Positions 9,668-42,716 of a stretch of DNA of 64,000 bases are shown piece by piece (the stretch's first letter is position 1; each line of letters starts with the position of its first letter). Both the position numbers and the translations under genes were made by a program. The stretch lies in the NCBI RefSeq assembly GCF_044324875.1, contig NZ_CP172185.1; one strand, written 5' to 3'. Source of the DNA: Escherichia coli. GTDB lineage: Bacteria; Pseudomonadota; Gammaproteobacteria; Enterobacterales; Enterobacteriaceae. Below the pieces are notes generated by a model. It had not been told where the DNA came from. It searched no databases and saw only the letters and a program-made list of their open reading frames with translations.

Positions 9668-10530
9668 GCTTAGTCAGCCGTTGTCTCCGGGTGTCGCGTG
9701 CGCAGTTGCACGTCATTCTCAGACGAACCGATGACTGGATGGATGGCCGCCGCAGTCGTCACACTGATGATACGGATGTGCTTCTCCGTATACACCATGT
9801 TATCGGAGAGCTGCCAACGTATGGTTATCGTCGGGTATGGGCGCTGCTTCGCAGACAGGCAGAACTTGATGGTATGCCTGCGATCAATGCCAAACGTGTT
9901 TACCGGATCATGCGCCAGAATGCGCTGTTGCTTGAGCGAAAACCTGCTGTACCGCCATCGAAACGGGCACATACAGGCAGAGTGGCTGTGAAAGAAAGTA
10001 ATCAGCGATGGTGCTCTGACGGGTTCGAGTTCCGCTGTGATAACGGAGAAAAACTGCGAGTCACGTTCGCGCTGGACTGCTGTGACCGTGAGGCACTGCA
10101 CTGGGCGGTCACTACGGGCGGCTTCAACAGTGAAACAGTACAGGACGTCATGCTGGGAGCGGTGGAACGCCGCTTCGGCAACGAGCTTCCGGCGTCTCCA
10201 GTAGAGTGGCTGACGGATAATGGTTCATGCTACCGGGCTAATGAAACACGGCAGTTTGCCCGGATGTTGGGGCTTGAACCGAAGAGCACGGCGGTGCGGA
10301 GTCCGGAGAGTAACGGCATAGCAGAGAGCTTCGTGAAAACGATAAAGCGTGACTACATCAGTGTCATGCCCAAACCAGACGGGTTAACGGCAGCAAAGAA
10401 CCTTGCAGAGGCGTTCGAGCATTATAACGAATGGCATCCGCATAGTGCACTGGGTTATCGCTCGCCACGGGAATATCTACGGCAGCAAGCCAGTAATGGG
10501 TTAAGTGATAACAGGTGTCTGGAAATATAG
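9625..10530 (+). CDS. insD: IS2 OrfB (InsD) DDE transposase, normally made as an OrfAB frameshift fusion
   Basis: 301-aa ORF overlapping insC in the -1 frame. It contains ..[42 protein letters not shown]... Confidence 0.95.
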
Positions 10531-36022: not shown

Positions 36023-36619
36023 TCACTGAGCTGTAATCAATGTACAGCGCTGTACCGGGCGATGGGTAATACCGGTCACAACCGGTAACCCCAGAGACAA
36101 TGCAACTGTTTTTAACGCAATATACTGGCCGGATGTATCACCCCGGGCAGCCTGAAAACACCTTTCCACCCGGCATTGTCCGTCAGCACTTATCACCCGC
36201 CATGTCTGTTGCAATAAATCCACCCGTTGCGAACATTCTTCATCAACCGTGGCACTGACCCGTGGATGGCAAATGCTCGTCTGGCTGAGCAGCAACAGGC
36301 ATCGCATTGTTGCTCCTCCATGTTGTTCCCGCAACCAGCGTAATACCACCGGTGGTGCTGGACTGGCCGTGTGATTACGTTCAGTAATACGCTCGTGCAC
36401 CTGTCGGTAAAAGGAAGTACAGAATGCATGAATCTGTTGTCCGTTGATGTTTCCTTCTGCCGAATGGAGCGTGAAGTGAAATGCCAACAGATTTGGCCAG
36501 TGGTCCACCGCCTGCTGAACAAAACGCCGGATTTCCCCCGGCGCTGAAAGTAAGGCTTCGGTTATTTGCACTATTTTATCCCCGTTGAATTTTGTTAAGC
36601 CGGTGCAGACCAGACACAC
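36023..36619 (-). CDS. YagK/YfjJ-family (inovirus Gp2-like) protein, paralogue 3
   Basis: 198-aa maximal ORF. It has no ATG start, so GTG at 36619 or GTG at 36571 (after GGGGA) is likely. It resembles the other two paralogues in the ..LLAFHFTLH.. block. Confidence 0.6.
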   Translation of the reverse strand: MCLVCTGLTKFNGDKIVQITEALLSAPGEIRRFVQQAVDHWPNLLAFHFTLHSAEGNINGQQIHAFCTSFYRQVHERITERNHTASPAPPVVLRWLREQHGGATMRCLLLLSQTSICHPRVSATVDEECSQRVDLLQQTWRVISADGQCRVERCFQAARGDTSGQYIALKTVALSLGLPVVTGITHRPVQRCTLITAQ

Positions 36620-36848
36620 GGAAAGCGCACATCGACACCGGCACGGTACGATACAAACACCAGTGACTGGCGGGACGAAGGGAATGACGAATCAGTCAGG
36701 AAATGATGACAAACAGTTGGCTGGCCAGAGGGTGCCAGCAGAAAGATGAGCGGGAGTTGTCAGCGCCAGCACCAGGGACAGGGCTGATTTCCACAATACC
36801 AGCGCCGGCATTTCGCACATTGCCAGCGTACTGGCATTACAACACGTT

Positions 36849-37085
36849 TCATGCTGCTGCTCCTCGTGATTCCTCAATTCGCTGCTGCATCCACTGCTCC
36901 ACTTCACTTTTGTACCAGCGGCTGCTGCGCCCCAGTTTGATGGGTTTAGGGAAATGGCCTTCACTGATCAGCTTGTAAAACCATTTGTCGGTCATACCAG
37001 TGAAGCTGGTGATGTAGTTCATGTCGATCAGGGGATCGTCGGCACGCAGCAATACGCTGTCGTGACCTGTCATTGAGGTCAACAT
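36849..37085 (-). CDS. alpA: AlpA-family phage/island regulatory protein (MerR-like HTH)
   Basis: 78 aa. ..LIDMNYITSFTGMTDKWFYKLISEGHFPKPIKLGRSSRWYKSEVEQWM.. has the typical AlpA-family layout. The start may be the internal ATG at 37073. Confidence 0.8.
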   Translation of the reverse strand: MLTSMTGHDSVLLRADDPLIDMNYITSFTGMTDKWFYKLISEGHFPKPIKLGRSSRWYKSEVEQWMQQRIEESRGAAA

Positions 37086-37153
37086 GGTCAGAATGTCCTC
37101 TGTGAGATTTATGAATGTTGGGCAAATGCGGGTGAATCTGCTGAGCTGAGCTT

Positions 37154-37756
37154 TCAGAGCTGGCCTGCTACGGGATACCAGGGATTACCGGCGAGGTAAC
37201 GGGCTTCCGGATCGCGCACACCACGACGATCGCGGGCGAAATCACTGAACGCCCATATCAGCTCTTTGAGTCTCTCTTCGCAGTCCGGTGAACAACTGTC
37301 CAGCACCACATCCCGGGTTATCTGTTTCTGGTACGGTGCTGCTTCACCCGGTGACGCGAAGCCCAGTACGTTGCTCCAGGCATCCAGAATCAACCGGTCC
37401 AGCTCAGGGCCGTCGAAATATTCCTGTCTGACGCACAGCACCACGTGGTATTCCGGTTTTTCAGGATGACGGGTCAGGAGCCAGCAGAGGTCGCGTCCGG
37501 GGGTTGCATTCATCAGCGCACTGACGGTTTCGATAAAGGCCATACCGAACCAGGTTTTTCTGTCGCTGAAGATGTTGCCATGTTCCCCCGGCAGACGAAG
37601 CAGGATCCGCCGTATCCTGGAGCCGGACTGCTCGCGCAACACACGGTTGAGAACGCCGATGATTTTGTTCTGATAAGATGGCCAGAAGGGCGCCATGCTA
37701 TAGTCGAAATAAGGGATAGCATTCATAAGATATGTTCCGTTATACGCAGCCCACAA
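37154..37756 (-). CDS. YagK/YfjJ-family (inovirus Gp2-like) protein, paralogue 2
   Basis: 200-aa ORF from a non-ATG start. ATG at 37726 (MNAIPYFDY..) is the more likely start. It contains ..IRRILLRLPGEHG.. and ..PEYHVVLCVRQEYF... Confidence 0.65.
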   Translation of the reverse strand: MWAAYNGTYLMNAIPYFDYSMAPFWPSYQNKIIGVLNRVLREQSGSRIRRILLRLPGEHGNIFSDRKTWFGMAFIETVSALMNATPGRDLCWLLTRHPEKPEYHVVLCVRQEYFDGPELDRLILDAWSNVLGFASPGEAAPYQKQITRDVVLDSCSPDCEERLKELIWAFSDFARDRRGVRDPEARYLAGNPWYPVAGQL

Positions 37757-38082
37757 CGCGTCCTGCCCGTGGATGCGCTGACGTGTTATGGCTTGCGTAT
37801 GGGGTTGATGGAATAAGTGAAAAACCGCGGCAGAACGGGAAGATCAGGTAACCGACAAGGGACAGAACACCGGATGCAGGTTCAGAATGAATGATCTCCG
37901 TTGACTTCGGTTCACATCATTAAGCAGGACAGTAAGGTTTTACCGACGGAGTGTTTCCAGGAGCGAAAGCAGAGAAAAATACCGTTGCATGACTTCAGGA
38001 CGACTTTTTCAGAAAACGAGCTAAGGGCGTCAGCCAACGTCCTGTAGCATAAGCTCAGGCACCGGATGTCGTTTTACAGGGC

Positions 38083-38814
38083 TCACCTGCCATCCAGCAG
38101 ACGCCCCGGCCCACGACTGCAACCATAATTACGTTGCCCGGAACCGTCATGCTGCTTCGTCTCATATTTCACGAGATAACTGGCTCTGTTCCGGGCTTTC
38201 TGCAGCGCTTCCACATCACCACGCTTGATCCAGAGAACAGCGGCTTCACCCGGCTTTTTTTCTGAAGCCTTCCTGGTATCAGAACATCCACCCGACAAAG
38301 GCGTGTCATCGGAAGAAGGGCGAGCATCAGACGATGCTGGTTTACGGGAAGGCGTCCACCTGGAAAAATGGACCAGGCCATCGCCTTGCCAGGCCTCAAG
38401 ATGCAGGGCGCTGCACCATGCCTCCAGGATCATCGTCGCCAGCGAAGATGGTTCGCTGAAATCCCCTGGCGAGCACCAGGTATCTTTGTTGAGCAGCAAT
38501 ATCACGTGATAATGTTTCCTGCCTTTTTCCTTGCCAAACTCCCGACACCAGAAATAACGCAGAGTGGTTGCACGCACACGCTTGTTGGCACGTCGTTTTT
38601 TCCGCTGGTAAGCCTGGATTTTGGCTTTCAGGGATTCGAAAAAACGAGAAATCACCGCTGAATCCGGATCGGGATCCATGATGGTGACAGGCATATACTC
38701 AGGGAAACGTAAATCCACCCGGATTAACGAGACGGCACGGTGCTGCGACAGGGCACTGTCGAGAAGGCTGTCAAAACGGGATAACCAGTAAGCATTGTGT
38801 ATTGGTTGATTCAT
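38083..38814 (-). CDS. YagK/YfjJ-family (inovirus Gp2-like) protein, paralogue 1; it retains an H-Y-H (HUH-type) motif
   Basis: 243 aa with GGAG 8 nt upstream. It has ..VSLIRVDLRFPE.., GRKHYHVILLLNKD (H101-Y-H103, DNA 38506-38514) and the C-terminal RASYLVKYETKQ. Confidence 0.8.
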   Translation of the reverse strand: MNQPIHNAYWLSRFDSLLDSALSQHRAVSLIRVDLRFPEYMPVTIMDPDPDSAVISRFFESLKAKIQAYQRKKRRANKRVRATTLRYFWCREFGKEKGRKHYHVILLLNKDTWCSPGDFSEPSSLATMILEAWCSALHLEAWQGDGLVHFSRWTPSRKPASSDARPSSDDTPLSGGCSDTRKASEKKPGEAAVLWIKRGDVEALQKARNRASYLVKYETKQHDGSGQRNYGCSRGPGRLLDGR

Positions 38815-40397
38815 GATGAGAGATCTCCGTTGATTTGGATTGACTTCACATCATTAATCACCGCGGTAAAACTTTACGGCATCATGTCATTAAGCAATGC
38901 TACAACTCTCTGATTAAGAGTGATTGAAACGGAACAAACCATCCCGGAACGAAAAGATAATCCTGCACACAGCAGCAAAACACGCAACAACAGCATGAAT
39001 GGATTTAAAAACGACATGGACGACGAGAAAAGCCTGAAGGGAAAAGGATCCACAGAACATTCGAACAAAACACCAGAAACGCAACCAGAACGCTTCCTGG
39101 CAATGCAAATCAACAACAACGCCAAAACCTACAGCTTAATCACACAACTCAATCACGAATGCGAATGACACGTTTAAAACCTGTTTACAGATAACGCCGT
39201 AACACGATCATCCCCATCACCATCAGAATCGATTTTCTCATCCCGAAAATGTTACGTTTCACTACGCACCATAAAAACGATTAACCATCGATAACGTAAA
39301 TCTCATCTGAATCAAAAAACCAAAACCAATCATCACACTTTCGCAATGCAAGAAGAAAAACCACATCATGACGAAAACAATGACCTTACATGAAAAAGCA
39401 AAACGTCAGGAATCGTTAATGCCTCAATCTGATTGTTATCAAAACATCCAGAAAGTCGTTTAACAGAATCGTCGTAAGCACATCGAAAAGAACGTCAGAT
39501 CACCTCAGGAAAGTTCGGGTTGATTTAGCGTAAAGATACTTTTCTCAGCTTAACGTCGAAACACAAACCAAAAACCACAAACAACCAAAGCTCAGGAAAG
39601 GTTAAACGTCACATCAGTAAAATCGAATAGCAGATTGATTGCTTAAACAGGAAAGATTGTTTTACAGCAGCATTAAACTGATTTAGTTAACGTAAAATCA
39701 GAACTGACAGGTTTACTAACTTGGATGTGTATCAGTTCAAAAATGTGTACAGCAATGCGTAATGAAACACATTTAAAGGAGATTAATGGGAAAAGTGTGT
39801 AAATGCGTAAACATGCACTAATGAATCACTGAAGGAATACATACAAAACGACTTAATGAAAACATAAAAGGACCTAATGGAAAAGGTGTATATAATACCA
39901 TATCCGACATTCTCAACATCTTAAGACATCCATGCAGACTGAATGTTGGTTTCAGTTTTTCACGGTAAGCATGAATCTTTTCTGTTCAAAAGCAGAGCAG
40001 ATTTACTCTGGAATTATTTTTCTTACTCCGTATTCTGTACAGCAAAAACTTGTGCTAACTTTACAGCAAACCATCATAATCAGCGTCTGTAGTCCCATCG
40101 CTTTACCCCATGAAAGTGAATCCATATGATGTGAGAGAGATAAGTCATCGTATCCGGTAAACACTGCTTACTATAACATAAGATCATTCAGTCAGTTTTA
40201 TCTCTGAACTGACGATTATGGCATGCTCATTTATATGGCTCACAGAGGAGTGTTATTATCCGTAAGCTTTAATCATCAAATCACATGACCATACCAAACT
40301 GGCGCTATATCAGCTCATTTGACGCTCATTCCCTTTAGATTTCTTTATGTGTTTTTTGTCGATAATTAAAATGTAATATAAATTTAATATTTTCACA
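38815..40397. other. 1.58-kb ORF-poor tract with strong strand composition skew and recurring short words
   Basis: The only track ORFs are 38874-39168 (three overlapping, low-complexity) and a 65-aa one at 39932. The + strand of about 38,900-39,720 is conspicuously A/C-rich. See the findings for word positions. Confidence 0.6.
39760..39883 (+). repeat. five spaced TAATG(A/G)(A/G)A words
   Basis: TAATG starts at 39760, 39784, 39819, 39854 and 39875, giving spacings of 24, 35, 35 and 21 nt. The contexts are cgTAATGAAAC, atTAATGGGAA, acTAATGAATC, ctTAATGAAAA and ccTAATGGAAA. Confidence 0.5.
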
Positions 40398-41621
40398 TCA
40401 TAAACACCATTTAAAACCATCATCCTGAACATCATACAACAATATATTTTTACTAAAGCATGAATTGTATATTTCTATTAATTCAGGAAAATTATCAGGA
40501 TTCACCTTTAAATTCAACTGAATGTTACACTTAATTTCACTCAGCAGTTCTTCATGCGTGGATTTTATTATCCCTTTATCATAATCTATAAATACACACA
40601 TGTTTTTCATGAATTCAAACCCTTTTCCTGTATACAGTTTGATGAATGCCACAAGAGCAAACATTTCAAGATGCAGCCATAATGCCACGTGAGTTTTTCG
40701 CAAAGTATAAAAAATTGAATTCGCCACTTTTTTACTTATTGCTCTTTTGTACTGTGAGTGCGCCAGATTCAGTAGTGGCAATTCTCTCTCGATAAATGAA
40801 AGTGAAAAAGGCGGGTAAATTGATGTCGGAAATATTTCAGGTCTTATGATATTTTCGATTTCCACCATAAATCTATCCATAGAACGAAAATCATTTTCTT
40901 TTTTTATTCTGGTATAGAGACCGCCTTTATTCCTTACTGCGACTTTTTTTCGTGCTATCCCCCCCAACATTTCCTCTAATTGTTTATTTATCTTCGTATC
41001 ATTAAATACAACCATTCTTCTTATCATCCTGGGAAGGATGATAATATCAGAGCTTGAATCACTTGAACGGCAATTATTATTGATCCATGCAACTTCAAGT
41101 TGAAGTATCGGAACATTAAATTCTCTGGGGTTAATAACTCTCTGATATTGTTTTTTGTATGCGTTTTCATTAAGATATTCTCTGCTGTAGAGAAACTTAT
41201 AGCAATATAATCTGACAATATCCTTTATGTAAGATTTAAATGAGTCACCTGTAACAGATATATTTTTTCTTCTCAGTAACTCCTGTGTATTGAGCCATTC
41301 CCGTGACCGGAGTACTCCATTATGAAGACTTTTTCTTACTTGCTTTGAATTGCGCAATTGATGTAATATTTTTGCGTCCTCAACAATTCTCTTTCCCGTT
41401 TGATTTCTTGCAGCATCTATTACTCTGTCAAATATCTCCCGGTCCAGACTTTTGTCATATTTACTGATTATACGACAAATATTCCTGACCCGACGGTTCT
41501 CTTTATTTCGTTTCCATAACTGATAATGATCATCACATAACCTCAGGGCATTTGCCTCATCAAATTCTGAAACAGGATTGCTGCATTTTTTATTCCGACA
41601 GATACCTTTGTTTTTAGCCAT
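40398..41621 (-). CDS. hypothetical 407-aa protein, AT-rich orphan with an N-terminal Cys/His cluster
   Basis: This is the only long ORF here, and its Lys/Asn/Ile-rich composition matches the very AT-rich DNA. The N-terminus is MAKNKGICRNKKCSNPVSEFDEANALRLCDDHYQLWKRNKENRR (C-x4-C-x16-C-x2-H). I recognise no family. Confidence 0.7.
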   Translation of the reverse strand: MAKNKGICRNKKCSNPVSEFDEANALRLCDDHYQLWKRNKENRRVRNICRIISKYDKSLDREIFDRVIDAARNQTGKRIVEDAKILHQLRNSKQVRKSLHNGVLRSREWLNTQELLRRKNISVTGDSFKSYIKDIVRLYCYKFLYSREYLNENAYKKQYQRVINPREFNVPILQLEVAWINNNCRSSDSSSDIIILPRMIRRMVVFNDTKINKQLEEMLGGIARKKVAVRNKGGLYTRIKKENDFRSMDRFMVEIENIIRPEIFPTSIYPPFSLSFIERELPLLNLAHSQYKRAISKKVANSIFYTLRKTHVALWLHLEMFALVAFIKLYTGKGFEFMKNMCVFIDYDKGIIKSTHEELLSEIKCNIQLNLKVNPDNFPELIEIYNSCFSKNILLYDVQDDGFKWCL

Positions 41622-41721
41622 ACTCTTCTTCCCGTCAATGGAAAAATTTTCACGTCCATATTACCTGACTGAGAGGCCGGATTAATGTGATCCGGTTCAG
41701 TGAAATCAACAGGATAACGGT

Positions 41722-42606
41722 ATGTCATTCAGCCATTCTTCCCTCTCCGCACACGTAAAGTCACATCTGACCTTTCTTCCTGAAGAAATTCGCCAGAAAA
41801 TCCTTGAACATCTTCGCAGCGTCATTCAGTACGAACCCGTTATTGGCATTATGGGTAAATCCGGTGCCGGAAAAAGCAGCCTGTGCAATGCCATTTTTCA
41901 GTCCCGTGTCTGCGCCACGCATCCGCTGAACGGCTGCACCCGTCAGGCTCATCGTCTTACCTTTCAGCCCGGTGAACGAAGAATGACGCTGGTCGATCTG
42001 CCCGGCACTGGCGAAACACCACAGCATGATCAGGAATACCGGGCACTTTACAGTCAGTTACTGCCCGAACTGGATCTGATTATCTGGATCCTGCGGGCTG
42101 ATGAACGTGCGTATGCTGCCGACATCGCCATGCATCAGTTTTTACTGAATGAAGGTGCCGATCCCTCGCGTTTTCTGTTTGTTCTCAGCCATGCCGATCG
42201 CATCCACCCGGCTGAAGAATGGAACAACCAGAGCAGCACGCCATCCCGTCAGCAGGAACTCTCACTGGCGACGGTGACAGCCCGGGTGGCAACCCTGTTC
42301 CCTTCATCATTTCCGGTACTCCCCATAGCCGCTCCTGCCGGCTGGAATCTTCCGGCATTTGTGTCTCTGATGATCCACGCCCTGCCACCACAGGCAACCA
42401 GCGCGGTTTATTCGCATATCCGGAATGAAAAGCGCACTGCGCAGGATCAGCAACACGCACAGCAGGCTTTTGGTGACGCCATCGGCCAGAGTTTTGACGC
42501 TGCCATTGCCCGGTTCAGCTTTCCGGCCTGGATGCTGCAGCTTCTGCGCAAAGCCCGTGATCGCATTATCCGCCTGCTGATCACACTGTGGGATCGCCTG
42601 TTCTGA
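41722..42606 (+). CDS. YeeP/YkfA/YfjP-family island GTPase
   Basis: 294 aa with P-loop GIMGKSGAGKSSL and G3 motif DLPGTGE. It occupies the first position of the CP4-type conserved module. Confidence 0.85.
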   Translation: MSFSHSSLSAHVKSHLTFLPEEIRQKILEHLRSVIQYEPVIGIMGKSGAGKSSLCNAIFQSRVCATHPLNGCTRQAHRLTFQPGERRMTLVDLPGTGETPQHDQEYRALYSQLLPELDLIIWILRADERAYAADIAMHQFLLNEGADPSRFLFVLSHADRIHPAEEWNNQSSTPSRQQELSLATVTARVATLFPSSFPVLPIAAPAGWNLPAFVSLMIHALPPQATSAVYSHIRNEKRTAQDQQHAQQAFGDAIGQSFDAAIARFSFPAWMLQLLRKARDRIIRLLITLWDRLF

Positions 42607-42716
42607 ATGTCCCCGCTTTTTGACCGGCCCCGGCGATAACCAGGAAACGCATTTCCGGTTGCGTCACCACAATGCTGAAGGGCTTCGGTAAACCCTCATT
42701 CATTTCATCCATCAGG

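Follow-up and report, generated by a model that had tools for sequence, protein, structure and literature searches.

We analyzed a window of 64,000 nucleotides from the Escherichia coli contig NZ_CP172185.1 (assembly GCF_044324875.1) and focused on an open reading frame (ORF) of 407 amino acids (aa) on its minus strand, positions 40398 to 41621, which lies in a genomic island and encodes a protein identical to WP_045147348.1, labeled “hypothetical protein.” On the comparisons given below, this gene is one of several deeply divergent homologous alleles inside a conserved island backbone, and its product belongs to an uncharacterized family with a predicted zinc finger and an HNH-derived core. 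The ORF is a single uninterrupted frame with an ATG start and a purine-rich GGGAAGAAGAGT just upstream. A divergent control region of 100 base pairs (bp; 41622 to 41721) separates it from a P-loop GTPase gene of the YfjP/YeeP/YkfA type on the plus strand (41722 to 42606; Pfam MMR_HSR1, E = 2e-14), the first gene of an array that runs DUF932-ArdB-RadC-...-CbeA/CbtA-DUF4942. The preliminary description of this DNA had drawn the feature out to 41721; the ORF itself stands, but it ends at 41621, and the remaining 100 bp are the intergenic spacer up to the GTPase start. Downstream of the ORF and on the same strand, the next intact gene encodes a Rep-like YagK/YfjJ protein (“inovirus Gp2”; 38083 to 38814; YagK_YfjJ_C, 3.6e-37; REP_ORF2-G2P, 1.9e-10), beyond which lies a gene for an AlpA-family regulator/excisionase (36849 to 37085; Pfam Phage_AlpA, 2e-10). 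The content of guanine plus cytosine (GC) is 0.339 in the ORF, against 0.55 in the adjoining GTPase gene and 0.488 in the whole window. The ORF is therefore AT-rich relative to its surroundings, as described, but the AT-rich block is wider than the ORF and extends from about 38.8 to 41.7 kb.

The 407-aa protein is basic, with a predicted isoelectric point (pI) of 9.6 and 72 lysines and arginines versus 47 aspartates and glutamates. Its N terminus holds a predicted zinc finger of a treble-clef-like CCCH type at codons 8 to 32 (41526 to 41600, minus strand), whose putative ligands Cys8, Cys13, Cys29, and His32 are at least 90% conserved among 28 family members and invariant in the subfamily of the window protein. 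The N-terminal Cys/His cluster and the basic stretch that follows it had been noticed before, and both are present, although the spacing reads C-x4-C-x15-C-x2-H rather than having x16 in its middle part. For the predicted structure we used an AlphaFold2 (AF2) model built on a 17-sequence alignment (predicted local distance difference test [pLDDT] score, 78; predicted template modeling score, 0.66), from which the secondary structure was taken. In this model, pLDDT is 76 to 89 over residues 1 to 40, the last two ligands of the predicted finger sit at the start of a long helix (residues 30 to 55), and the basic stretch WKRNKENRRVRN (codons 36 to 47; 41481 to 41516, minus strand) lies on that helix. 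None of the Pfam zinc-finger models matches at a meaningful E value, and it is the pI together with the basic helix after the finger that lends indirect support to a putative binding of zinc and nucleic acid. The C-terminal part is predicted to be a helical domain (codons 281 to 407; 40401 to 40781, minus strand; pLDDT, 81 to 95), whose invariant columns give the signature LPLxxLA ... LExFA ... YNSxFS and which has no fold match in the PDB or among viral models.

Searches of the window protein against Pfam, NCBIfam, PHROGs, PADLOC, and the sequences of the PDB gave nothing usable, the only hits being TetR-C_39 (E = 5.1) and phrog_1189 (E = 0.043), in agreement with the earlier statement that no family was recognized in the ∼360 aa after the N-terminal cluster. 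Likewise, the model of the window protein has no fold match in the PDB, a Foldseek search against the BFVD viral models gave nothing below an E value of 1, and the family and structure searches showed no similarity to known anti-restriction or anti-CRISPR proteins. The defense models of PADLOC-DB 2.0.0 matched 0 families for the window protein and five of its relatives. The term “orphan” used in the preliminary description thus holds for curated families but not for homologues, which occur in several genera. A profile search of 1.84 billion representative proteins yielded 43 matches at an E value of ≤1e-3. Full-length relatives with 30 to 37% identity occur in Citrobacter, Klebsiella, Salmonella, and other Enterobacteriaceae, and more distant full-length members with 18 to 21% identity come from Providencia and from IMG/VR contigs. 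No matches were obtained by tblastn in a phage collection of 50,697 records, searched with a single distant relative as the query (P0029, with an intact HNH motif), or in a plasmid collection of 72,556 records, searched with the window protein as the single query. A scan of one genome per species with the profile of the window subfamily found three loci only, none of them in E. coli, whose representative genome had no pattern match. The UniRef name “Reverse transcriptase” of the Klebsiella michiganensis homologue P0016 was disregarded, as it has no support from sequence, profile, or structure. We found no papers citing WP_045147348, WP_001107219, or A0A0D8W434, and the literature on yfjP, yeeP, and ykfA held incidental mentions only.

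The distant members carry the motif LExCHxYPNSxGGxNxxxNxIIAPxxINR, and hhalign aligned the window subfamily with this HNH-bearing subfamily over 366 columns (probability, 99.8%; E = 2e-30). When a 60-column profile of the motif segment of the distant branch was compared with the PDB, all 10 of the 10 matches were HNH nucleases (McrA, Cas8f-HNH fusions, Cas9, and others), with alignments falling exactly on the catalytic motif LEvHHxxPxSxGGaxxxxN; the full-length profile of the same subfamily gave no PDB matches, and only the motif profile succeeded. Against Pfam, 9 of 14 distant motif segments matched HNH_4 (best E value, 2.9e-4) and 6 of 14 matched HNH_5, while no non-HNH family was hit. From these matches, individually below threshold but mutually consistent, we regard the members of the distant branch as HNH (beta-beta-alpha-metal) proteins: its motif, in the general form LExxHxxPxSxGGxNxxxNxxxxxxxxN, aligns residue for residue with the solved catalytic cores of HNH endonucleases (McrA, the HNH domain of Cas9, and Cas8f-HNH, as well as HNH_4 and HNH_5). 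Judged by these alignments, the family is descended from HNH nucleases.

The window protein itself matches none of the HNH models of Pfam and NCBIfam. Its residues 173 to 204 (LQLEVAWINNNCRSSDSSSDIIILPRMIRRMV; 41010 to 41105, minus strand) align to the HNH motif of the distant homologues and form a degenerate core, in which the catalytic, general-base His is replaced by Trp178 and the two conserved Asn are replaced by Asp192 and Arg201, while the GG is gone. Thus, the earlier remark that the remainder of the protein shows no catalytic motif overlooked the alignable segment but was right in that the catalytic residues are replaced there. The loss is shared by all 10 sequences of the window clade, in which W, F, Y, or K stands in for the His, while one of the Asn is replaced by Asp and the other by Arg; the Asp192 and Arg201 positions are invariant in the window subfamily, and an intermediate clade shows the same kind of catalytic-residue loss. 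AF2 predicts strands at residues 175 to 179 and 193 to 197 and a helix at 198 to 218 (pLDDT, 82 to 92), i.e., a beta-beta-alpha unit at the aligned place, as in HNH endonucleases. According to this model, the window protein has kept the beta-beta-alpha scaffold; with the catalytic residues replaced, its nuclease chemistry is probably gone. Outside the HNH core, many residues stay invariant among relatives of ∼30% identity. The HNH-intact branch has an additional CxxC...CxxxC/H element, which is missing from the window clade.

The gene holds the same relative position in Citrobacter, Klebsiella, Salmonella, Atlantibacter, Providencia, and six IMG/VR contigs, at overall identities of 20 to 37%. 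The most complete correspondence is found in Citrobacter, Klebsiella, Salmonella, and one further contig, where the GTPase gene, a spacer of 93 to 98 bp (93 to 100 bp with that of the window), and the divergent family gene are followed by AlpA and YagK/YfjJ; beyond the GTPase, the loci of these relatives continue with DUF932, ArdB, RadC, CbeA/CbtA, and DUF4942. Atlantibacter has the order GTPase, family gene, AlpA, with a gap of ∼145 bp between the first two as determined by tblastn. These observations bear out the link to the divergent GTPase that had been proposed from the window. In the HNH-intact members, the gene directly follows AlpA, with an overlap of 8 bp in Providencia, and lies upstream of the GTPase and/or the DUF932-ArdB-RadC array or divergently from such an array, the whole chain being present on no single contig; one HNH-intact contig instead has a DUF3987 gene upstream and a DprA-like gene downstream. 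The family-wide constant is the position between AlpA and the GTPase/DUF932 array, which forms the core of the element class discussed below, and the AlpA gene is a constant neighbor of the family in other genera. Within the same loci, the family protein has diverged further (30 to 35% identity) than the GTPase, DUF932, and ArdB (52 to 73%). Given that all Enterobacteriaceae homologues examined have 28 to 36% GC beside GTPase genes of 45 to 59% GC, the AT-richness is an old, maintained property of the gene, and with the position kept as well, the “separate, recent acquisition” proposed earlier is not supported.

Among 5,426 complete E. coli genomes, 974 contain DNA of the ORF, and in 967 of these the copy covers at least 80%. 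The 407-aa allele falls into a group with at least 99% identity to the window (35 genomes) and a group with ∼91% identity (933 genomes). In a spread sample of 60 matches, 58 were collinear and had no net indel. Compared with the common E. coli allele (WP_001107219.1, locus L016), the ratio of nonsynonymous to synonymous substitution rates (dN/dS) is 0.27 at a dS of 0.24, and the neighboring GTPase gene has a dN/dS of 0.22; the nucleotide identities are 91% for the gene and 88% for the GTPase. The 407-aa gene is thus subject to purifying selection, and its divergence has kept pace with that of the GTPase gene. The view that the ORF is real, intact, and selected was therefore confirmed, and frequent pseudogenization, which would have spoken against it, was not found, the gene being almost always full length among the 974 genomes. 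An identical allele occurs beside yghD/gsp in strain E41 and beside cadC in strain AR_0085; the window runs into cadCBA-dtpC-lysS, so the island is here at the cadC locus.

A comparison with islands that carry other alleles delimited the variable part. By blastn against L026 and L025, positions 36764 to 40020 are 91.6% identical and positions 41647 to 42606 are 88.9 to 89.2% identical, with nothing alignable between them. Given that the conserved flanks align and the middle does not, positions 40021 to 41646 form a discrete, replaceable cassette, which comprises the ORF together with ∼377 bp on its 3′ side and 25 bp on its 5′ side. With the E. coli GTPase lineage defined by at least 80% nucleotide identity, 2,537 copies are spread over 1,882 genomes. 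We chose three of them from a spread sample, and all three had a family member upstream, one each of the 407-aa gene, a gene for the 376-aa protein WP_000147743.1, and a gene for the 320-aa protein WP_033878375.1, the latter two also labeled “hypothetical protein.” In hhalign comparisons with the family profile, the 376-aa protein had a probability of 99.9% over 359 columns and the 320-aa protein had one of 96.8% over 251 columns. The slot is thus variable in sequence, as the term “variable cargo” in the preliminary description implied, but each sampled occupant is a homologue from the same family. With 1,066 genomic matches of the 407-aa type, 516 of the 376-aa type, and 813 of the 320-aa type (many of them partial), the three alleles together would roughly account for the 2,537 GTPase copies, in a comparison of totals rather than of copy-by-copy pairings. 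The three islands of E. coli K-12 are not known to carry a member of the family.

The divergent control region was examined by means of a five-genus alignment, dyads, and RNA folds. The alignment shows an invariant GGTAATATGG at 41656 to 41665 (ORF sense), which can be written as GGTAATAT(A/G)G in the same sense. Beside this element, at 41677 to 41695, lies a dyad, CCGGATTAATGTGATCCGG, whose sequence varies among genera. In E. coli the dyad, CCGGATTA(A/G)TGTGATCCGG, is unchanged beside the 407-, 376-, and 320-aa alleles; across the alignment it varies with the GTPase lineage instead. It thus goes along with the GTPase gene and does not serve the 407-aa protein as an allele-specific operator. 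In the sense of the GTPase gene, RNA folding predicted a two-tier hairpin in four of six loci, in which the outer stem pairs with the Shine-Dalgarno sequence of the GTPase gene (z-scores: −1.8 in the window at 41664 to 41714 on the plus strand, −2.2 in Citrobacter, −3.1 on the further contig, and −5.5 in Salmonella). The corresponding hairpins elsewhere, all on minus strands, lie at 9904 to 9975 in L002, 9900 to 9975 in L005, and 8491 to 8562 in L011 and have the same architecture with another sequence. The hairpin might act in the control of translation or be a dyad that a protein binds. In its working, and by analogy rather than homology, the arrangement recalls the Stl-type master repressors of staphylococcal pathogenicity islands, which are likewise divergent from the main operon and extremely divergent among similar elements; the window protein differs in having no helix-turn-helix (HTH) domain, and the spacer dyad stays the same with different alleles.

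In its backbone, the island resembles E. coli islands of the CP4-57, CP4-44, and CP4-6 type and the “prophage-like defensive MGEs” (mobile genetic elements) of a recent preprint (bioRxiv 10.1101/2025.09.15.676423), with which the window shares AlpA, YagK/YfjJ, and a YfjP/YeeP/YkfA-type GTPase as well as DUF932, ArdB, RadC, DUF987, CbeA/CbtA, and DUF4942. As described there, elements of this class combine AlpA and a Rep-like HUH protein with “moron” modules of RadC, ArdB, and CbtA and deliver defense payloads; the account of the class does not name or describe the family of the 407-aa protein, nor did term searches of the remaining text bring it up. As for the GTPase, its residues 183 to 284 have a weak PADLOC match to LeoBC (Eleos/dynamin-like; E = 3.8e-7), and the protein matches Pfam Dynamin_N (6.7e-10). 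This partial likeness to Eleos (the LeoA/LeoBC dynamin-like system) is set against clear differences, namely, that there is no LeoA, that the GTPase has 294 aa versus the 601 positions of the model, and that the 407-aa protein has no PADLOC match.

We consider the gene to be, with a probability of roughly 0.4, one allele of a fast-evolving backbone protein of CP4-like, tRNA-Phe-associated elements, by which we mean elements with an integrase, AlpA, a YagK/YfjJ Rep-like protein, the GTPase, DUF932, ArdB, RadC, and CbeA/CbtA, and its product to be a noncatalytic zinc-finger binder of nucleic acid. The protein would consist of three parts, i.e., a CCCH zinc finger with a basic helix, a dead HNH beta-beta-alpha unit, and a helical C-terminal domain of no known fold. 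Its finger, basic helix, and dead HNH scaffold would together bind nucleic acid without cutting it. Presumably transcribed from a conserved promoter back to back with that of the GTPase gene, it might serve the element's own program, either as a regulator of the AlpA/Rep arm and the GTPase-led operon or as a factor that handles DNA for them. The ancestral proteins were probably active HNH enzymes that nicked or cut the same substrate and were coexpressed with AlpA; such an ancestral form, with the HNH motif and directly after AlpA, may still be seen in Providencia and on the IMG/VR contigs.

Several points weigh against this interpretation. Every single HNH match of the relatives lies below the curated gathering thresholds, no characterized homologue links the family to any activity, and the binding of DNA, the binding of zinc, and the role in the life cycle of the island are what we infer from sequence. 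The 320-aa E. coli allele has no zinc finger at all, which shows that the family can do without one. A simple pair of repressor and operator is disfavored, since the spacer dyad was rejected as an allele-specific operator of the 407-aa protein, being identical beside three alleles. The pairing with the GTPase recurs across genera but is not constant, given that the GTPase gene is missing beside the family gene at loci L013 and L014 and is unrecognizable in Providencia. Finally, the extreme divergence of alleles beside flanks of ∼89% identity looks more like that of an arms-race gene than that of a housekeeping island regulator.

Genes that are in conflict with phages typically show the latter pattern, which leads to the alternative that comes closest, which we nevertheless judge unlikely: an anti-phage defense or abortive-infection module, alone or together with the GTPase, in which sensing or specificity would fall to the hypervariable protein and the GTPase would act as the switch or effector. 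The tight, ancient pairing of the two genes would suit such a module, but the gene occurs without the GTPase at L013 and L014. In CP4-57 of E. coli K-12, rnlAB occupies the region upstream of yfjP, which would also fit a defense role. The C-terminal part of the GTPase has its weak LeoBC match (E = 3.8e-7), but the GTPase heads an operon of genes of the anti-restriction/establishment type (ArdB and RadC), not of defense genes. Similarly, although delivery of defense payloads is a known trait of the element class (bioRxiv 10.1101/2025.09.15.676423), the slot is held by a conserved backbone gene and not by many unrelated occupants. With its nuclease residues lost, the protein is no obvious effector. 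PADLOC was null for the window protein and five relatives, and the proposal of a defense gene in the preliminary description is not supported.

Somewhat less probable than a defense module is an anti-defense or establishment factor allied to ArdB and RadC, which would, for example, mask the DNA of the element or, as a nuclease mimic, inhibit a host nuclease, and which would diversify with the defenses of the host. This would fit an inactivated nuclease scaffold that is retained under purifying selection and diverges faster than the backbone genes (30 to 35% versus 52 to 73% identity). The gene is a constant neighbor of the DUF932-ArdB-RadC array in every genus examined, but it is transcribed away from the ArdB/RadC operon instead of lying inside it, and the libraries searched gave no similarity to known anti-restriction or anti-CRISPR proteins. 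We give about the same low credence to the idea of a two-gene switch not recognized before, in which the nuclease-dead family would supply a hypervariable subunit for sensing or specificity and a dynamin/LeoBC-related small GTPase would be its partner, acting in immunity against phages or other mobile elements or in the induction of the island upon sensing of a helper. If this were true, some allele of the switch would be present in roughly a third of E. coli genomes, cassette-swapped under diversifying selection.

The HNH ancestry with lost catalytic residues, the sharp cassette edges with allelic replacement, and the base composition unlike that of the surroundings could also be read as the traces of a decaying selfish HNH homing-type endonuclease cassette, free-standing and mobile, which would have entered the AlpA-GTPase junction, been propagated through gene conversion, and would now be dead and drifting. 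However, the dN/dS of 0.27 over a dS of 0.24, the copies covering at least 80% in ∼967 of the 974 gene-bearing E. coli genomes, the invariant residues kept outside the HNH core among relatives of ∼30% identity, and the retention of the nuclease-dead clade in five genera all speak for continued function, which makes a drifting remnant improbable. Least of all do we favor the earlier view of an unrelated, recently acquired piece of foreign cargo in a variable slot, silenced by H-NS, which 34% GC inside an island of ∼55% GC and the lack of matches to curated families might suggest but which is contradicted by relatives with 30 to 37% identity in Citrobacter, Klebsiella, and Salmonella that share its position and AT-richness, by the homologues in the slot of other E. 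coli islands, and by the parallel divergence of gene and GTPase between E. coli alleles (91% versus 88% nucleotide identity).

The element class and the HNH superfamily are already known, whereas the libraries and literature searched describe neither the family and its architecture nor its nuclease-dead state or its standing as the hypervariable constant neighbor of the island GTPase. In E. coli and its relatives, CP4-like islands at tRNA-Phe and tRNA-Leu genes rank with the most common accessory elements and bear virulence, defense, and toxin-antitoxin genes, while most of their backbone genes are of no known function. The “hypothetical protein” beside the island GTPase is neither noise nor cargo but a distinct family without a Pfam or NCBIfam entry. 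It offers a natural experiment, in that active-looking HNH versions (Providencia) can be compared with dead versions (Enterobacteriaceae), and three divergent alleles can be compared within E. coli backbones that are nearly identical. Should the gene control the induction of the island or a conflict over host range, it would help explain how these elements move and persist. The result is a solid, testable lead on an abundant, uncharacterized E. coli family rather than evidence for a new mechanism.

Some further observations concern the relatives and the surroundings of the gene. The Salmonella Typhimurium homologue P0018 (L011, 8587 to 9984; 465 aa; also P0056) has two N-terminal zinc-finger units, of which the extra one (MMAKCVRRKCELPVSSVPEAKQKRLCEKHYLRFCEL) is of the type seen in the intermediate subfamily (P0045); this doubling suggests recombination between alleles. 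Loci L013, labeled Chryseobacterium sp. 18061, and L014, from Enterobacteriaceae bacterium RIT691, agree in gene order and are nearly identical in their match statistics, and the AlpA and Gp2-like genes there are of the Enterobacteriaceae type. Contamination or a mixed culture is the probable source of the Chryseobacterium label.

Downstream of the ORF, the 1.58 kb from 38815 to 40397 have a GC content of 0.373 and no ORF longer than 82 aa. Of this, the 1.2 kb between the cassette and the Gp2-like gene (38815 to 40020; ∼37% GC) is 91.6% conserved in islands with other alleles, and the RefSeq annotation places only one 57-aa hypothetical protein there, at ∼38995 to 39168. No Rfam family was found in 38700 to 41800 at an E value of ≤1. 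Remnants of AlpA in the AT-rich 38815 to 40397 were considered and rejected, as tblastn gave none and the sole AlpA gene nearby is that at 36849 to 37085. A 176-aa protein from the equivalent gap in the island of the common allele (L016) is absent from the window.

Two minus-strand ORFs of ∼200 aa each (36023 to 36619 and 37154 to 37756) flank the AlpA gene and have no Pfam match. A 200-aa ORF of this pair has 21 to 30% tblastn identity to YagK/YfjJ-type genes of other loci and may be a diverged paralogue of the Rep-like gene at 38083 to 38814. On the other side, the stretch from 42607 to 42698 in the window, as in E41 and AR_0085, is without three genes that lie between the GTPase and DUF932 genes of islands with other alleles, namely, those for a WYL/HTH regulator, a 225-aa hypothetical protein, and DUF905 (11210 to 13245 in L016, 5886 to 7921 in L025 and L026, and 5886 to 7924 in L027). 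The earlier impression that many neighboring genes are frameshifted was correct: according to the near-identical records L001 and L017, the regions at ∼45.0 to 47.5 kb and ∼35.3 to 36.0 kb contain frameshifted antitoxin, CbtA, and ProQ/FinO genes and truncated DUF5983 and DUF4942 genes. An integrase remnant adjoins cadC, and the island in the window looks immobilized.

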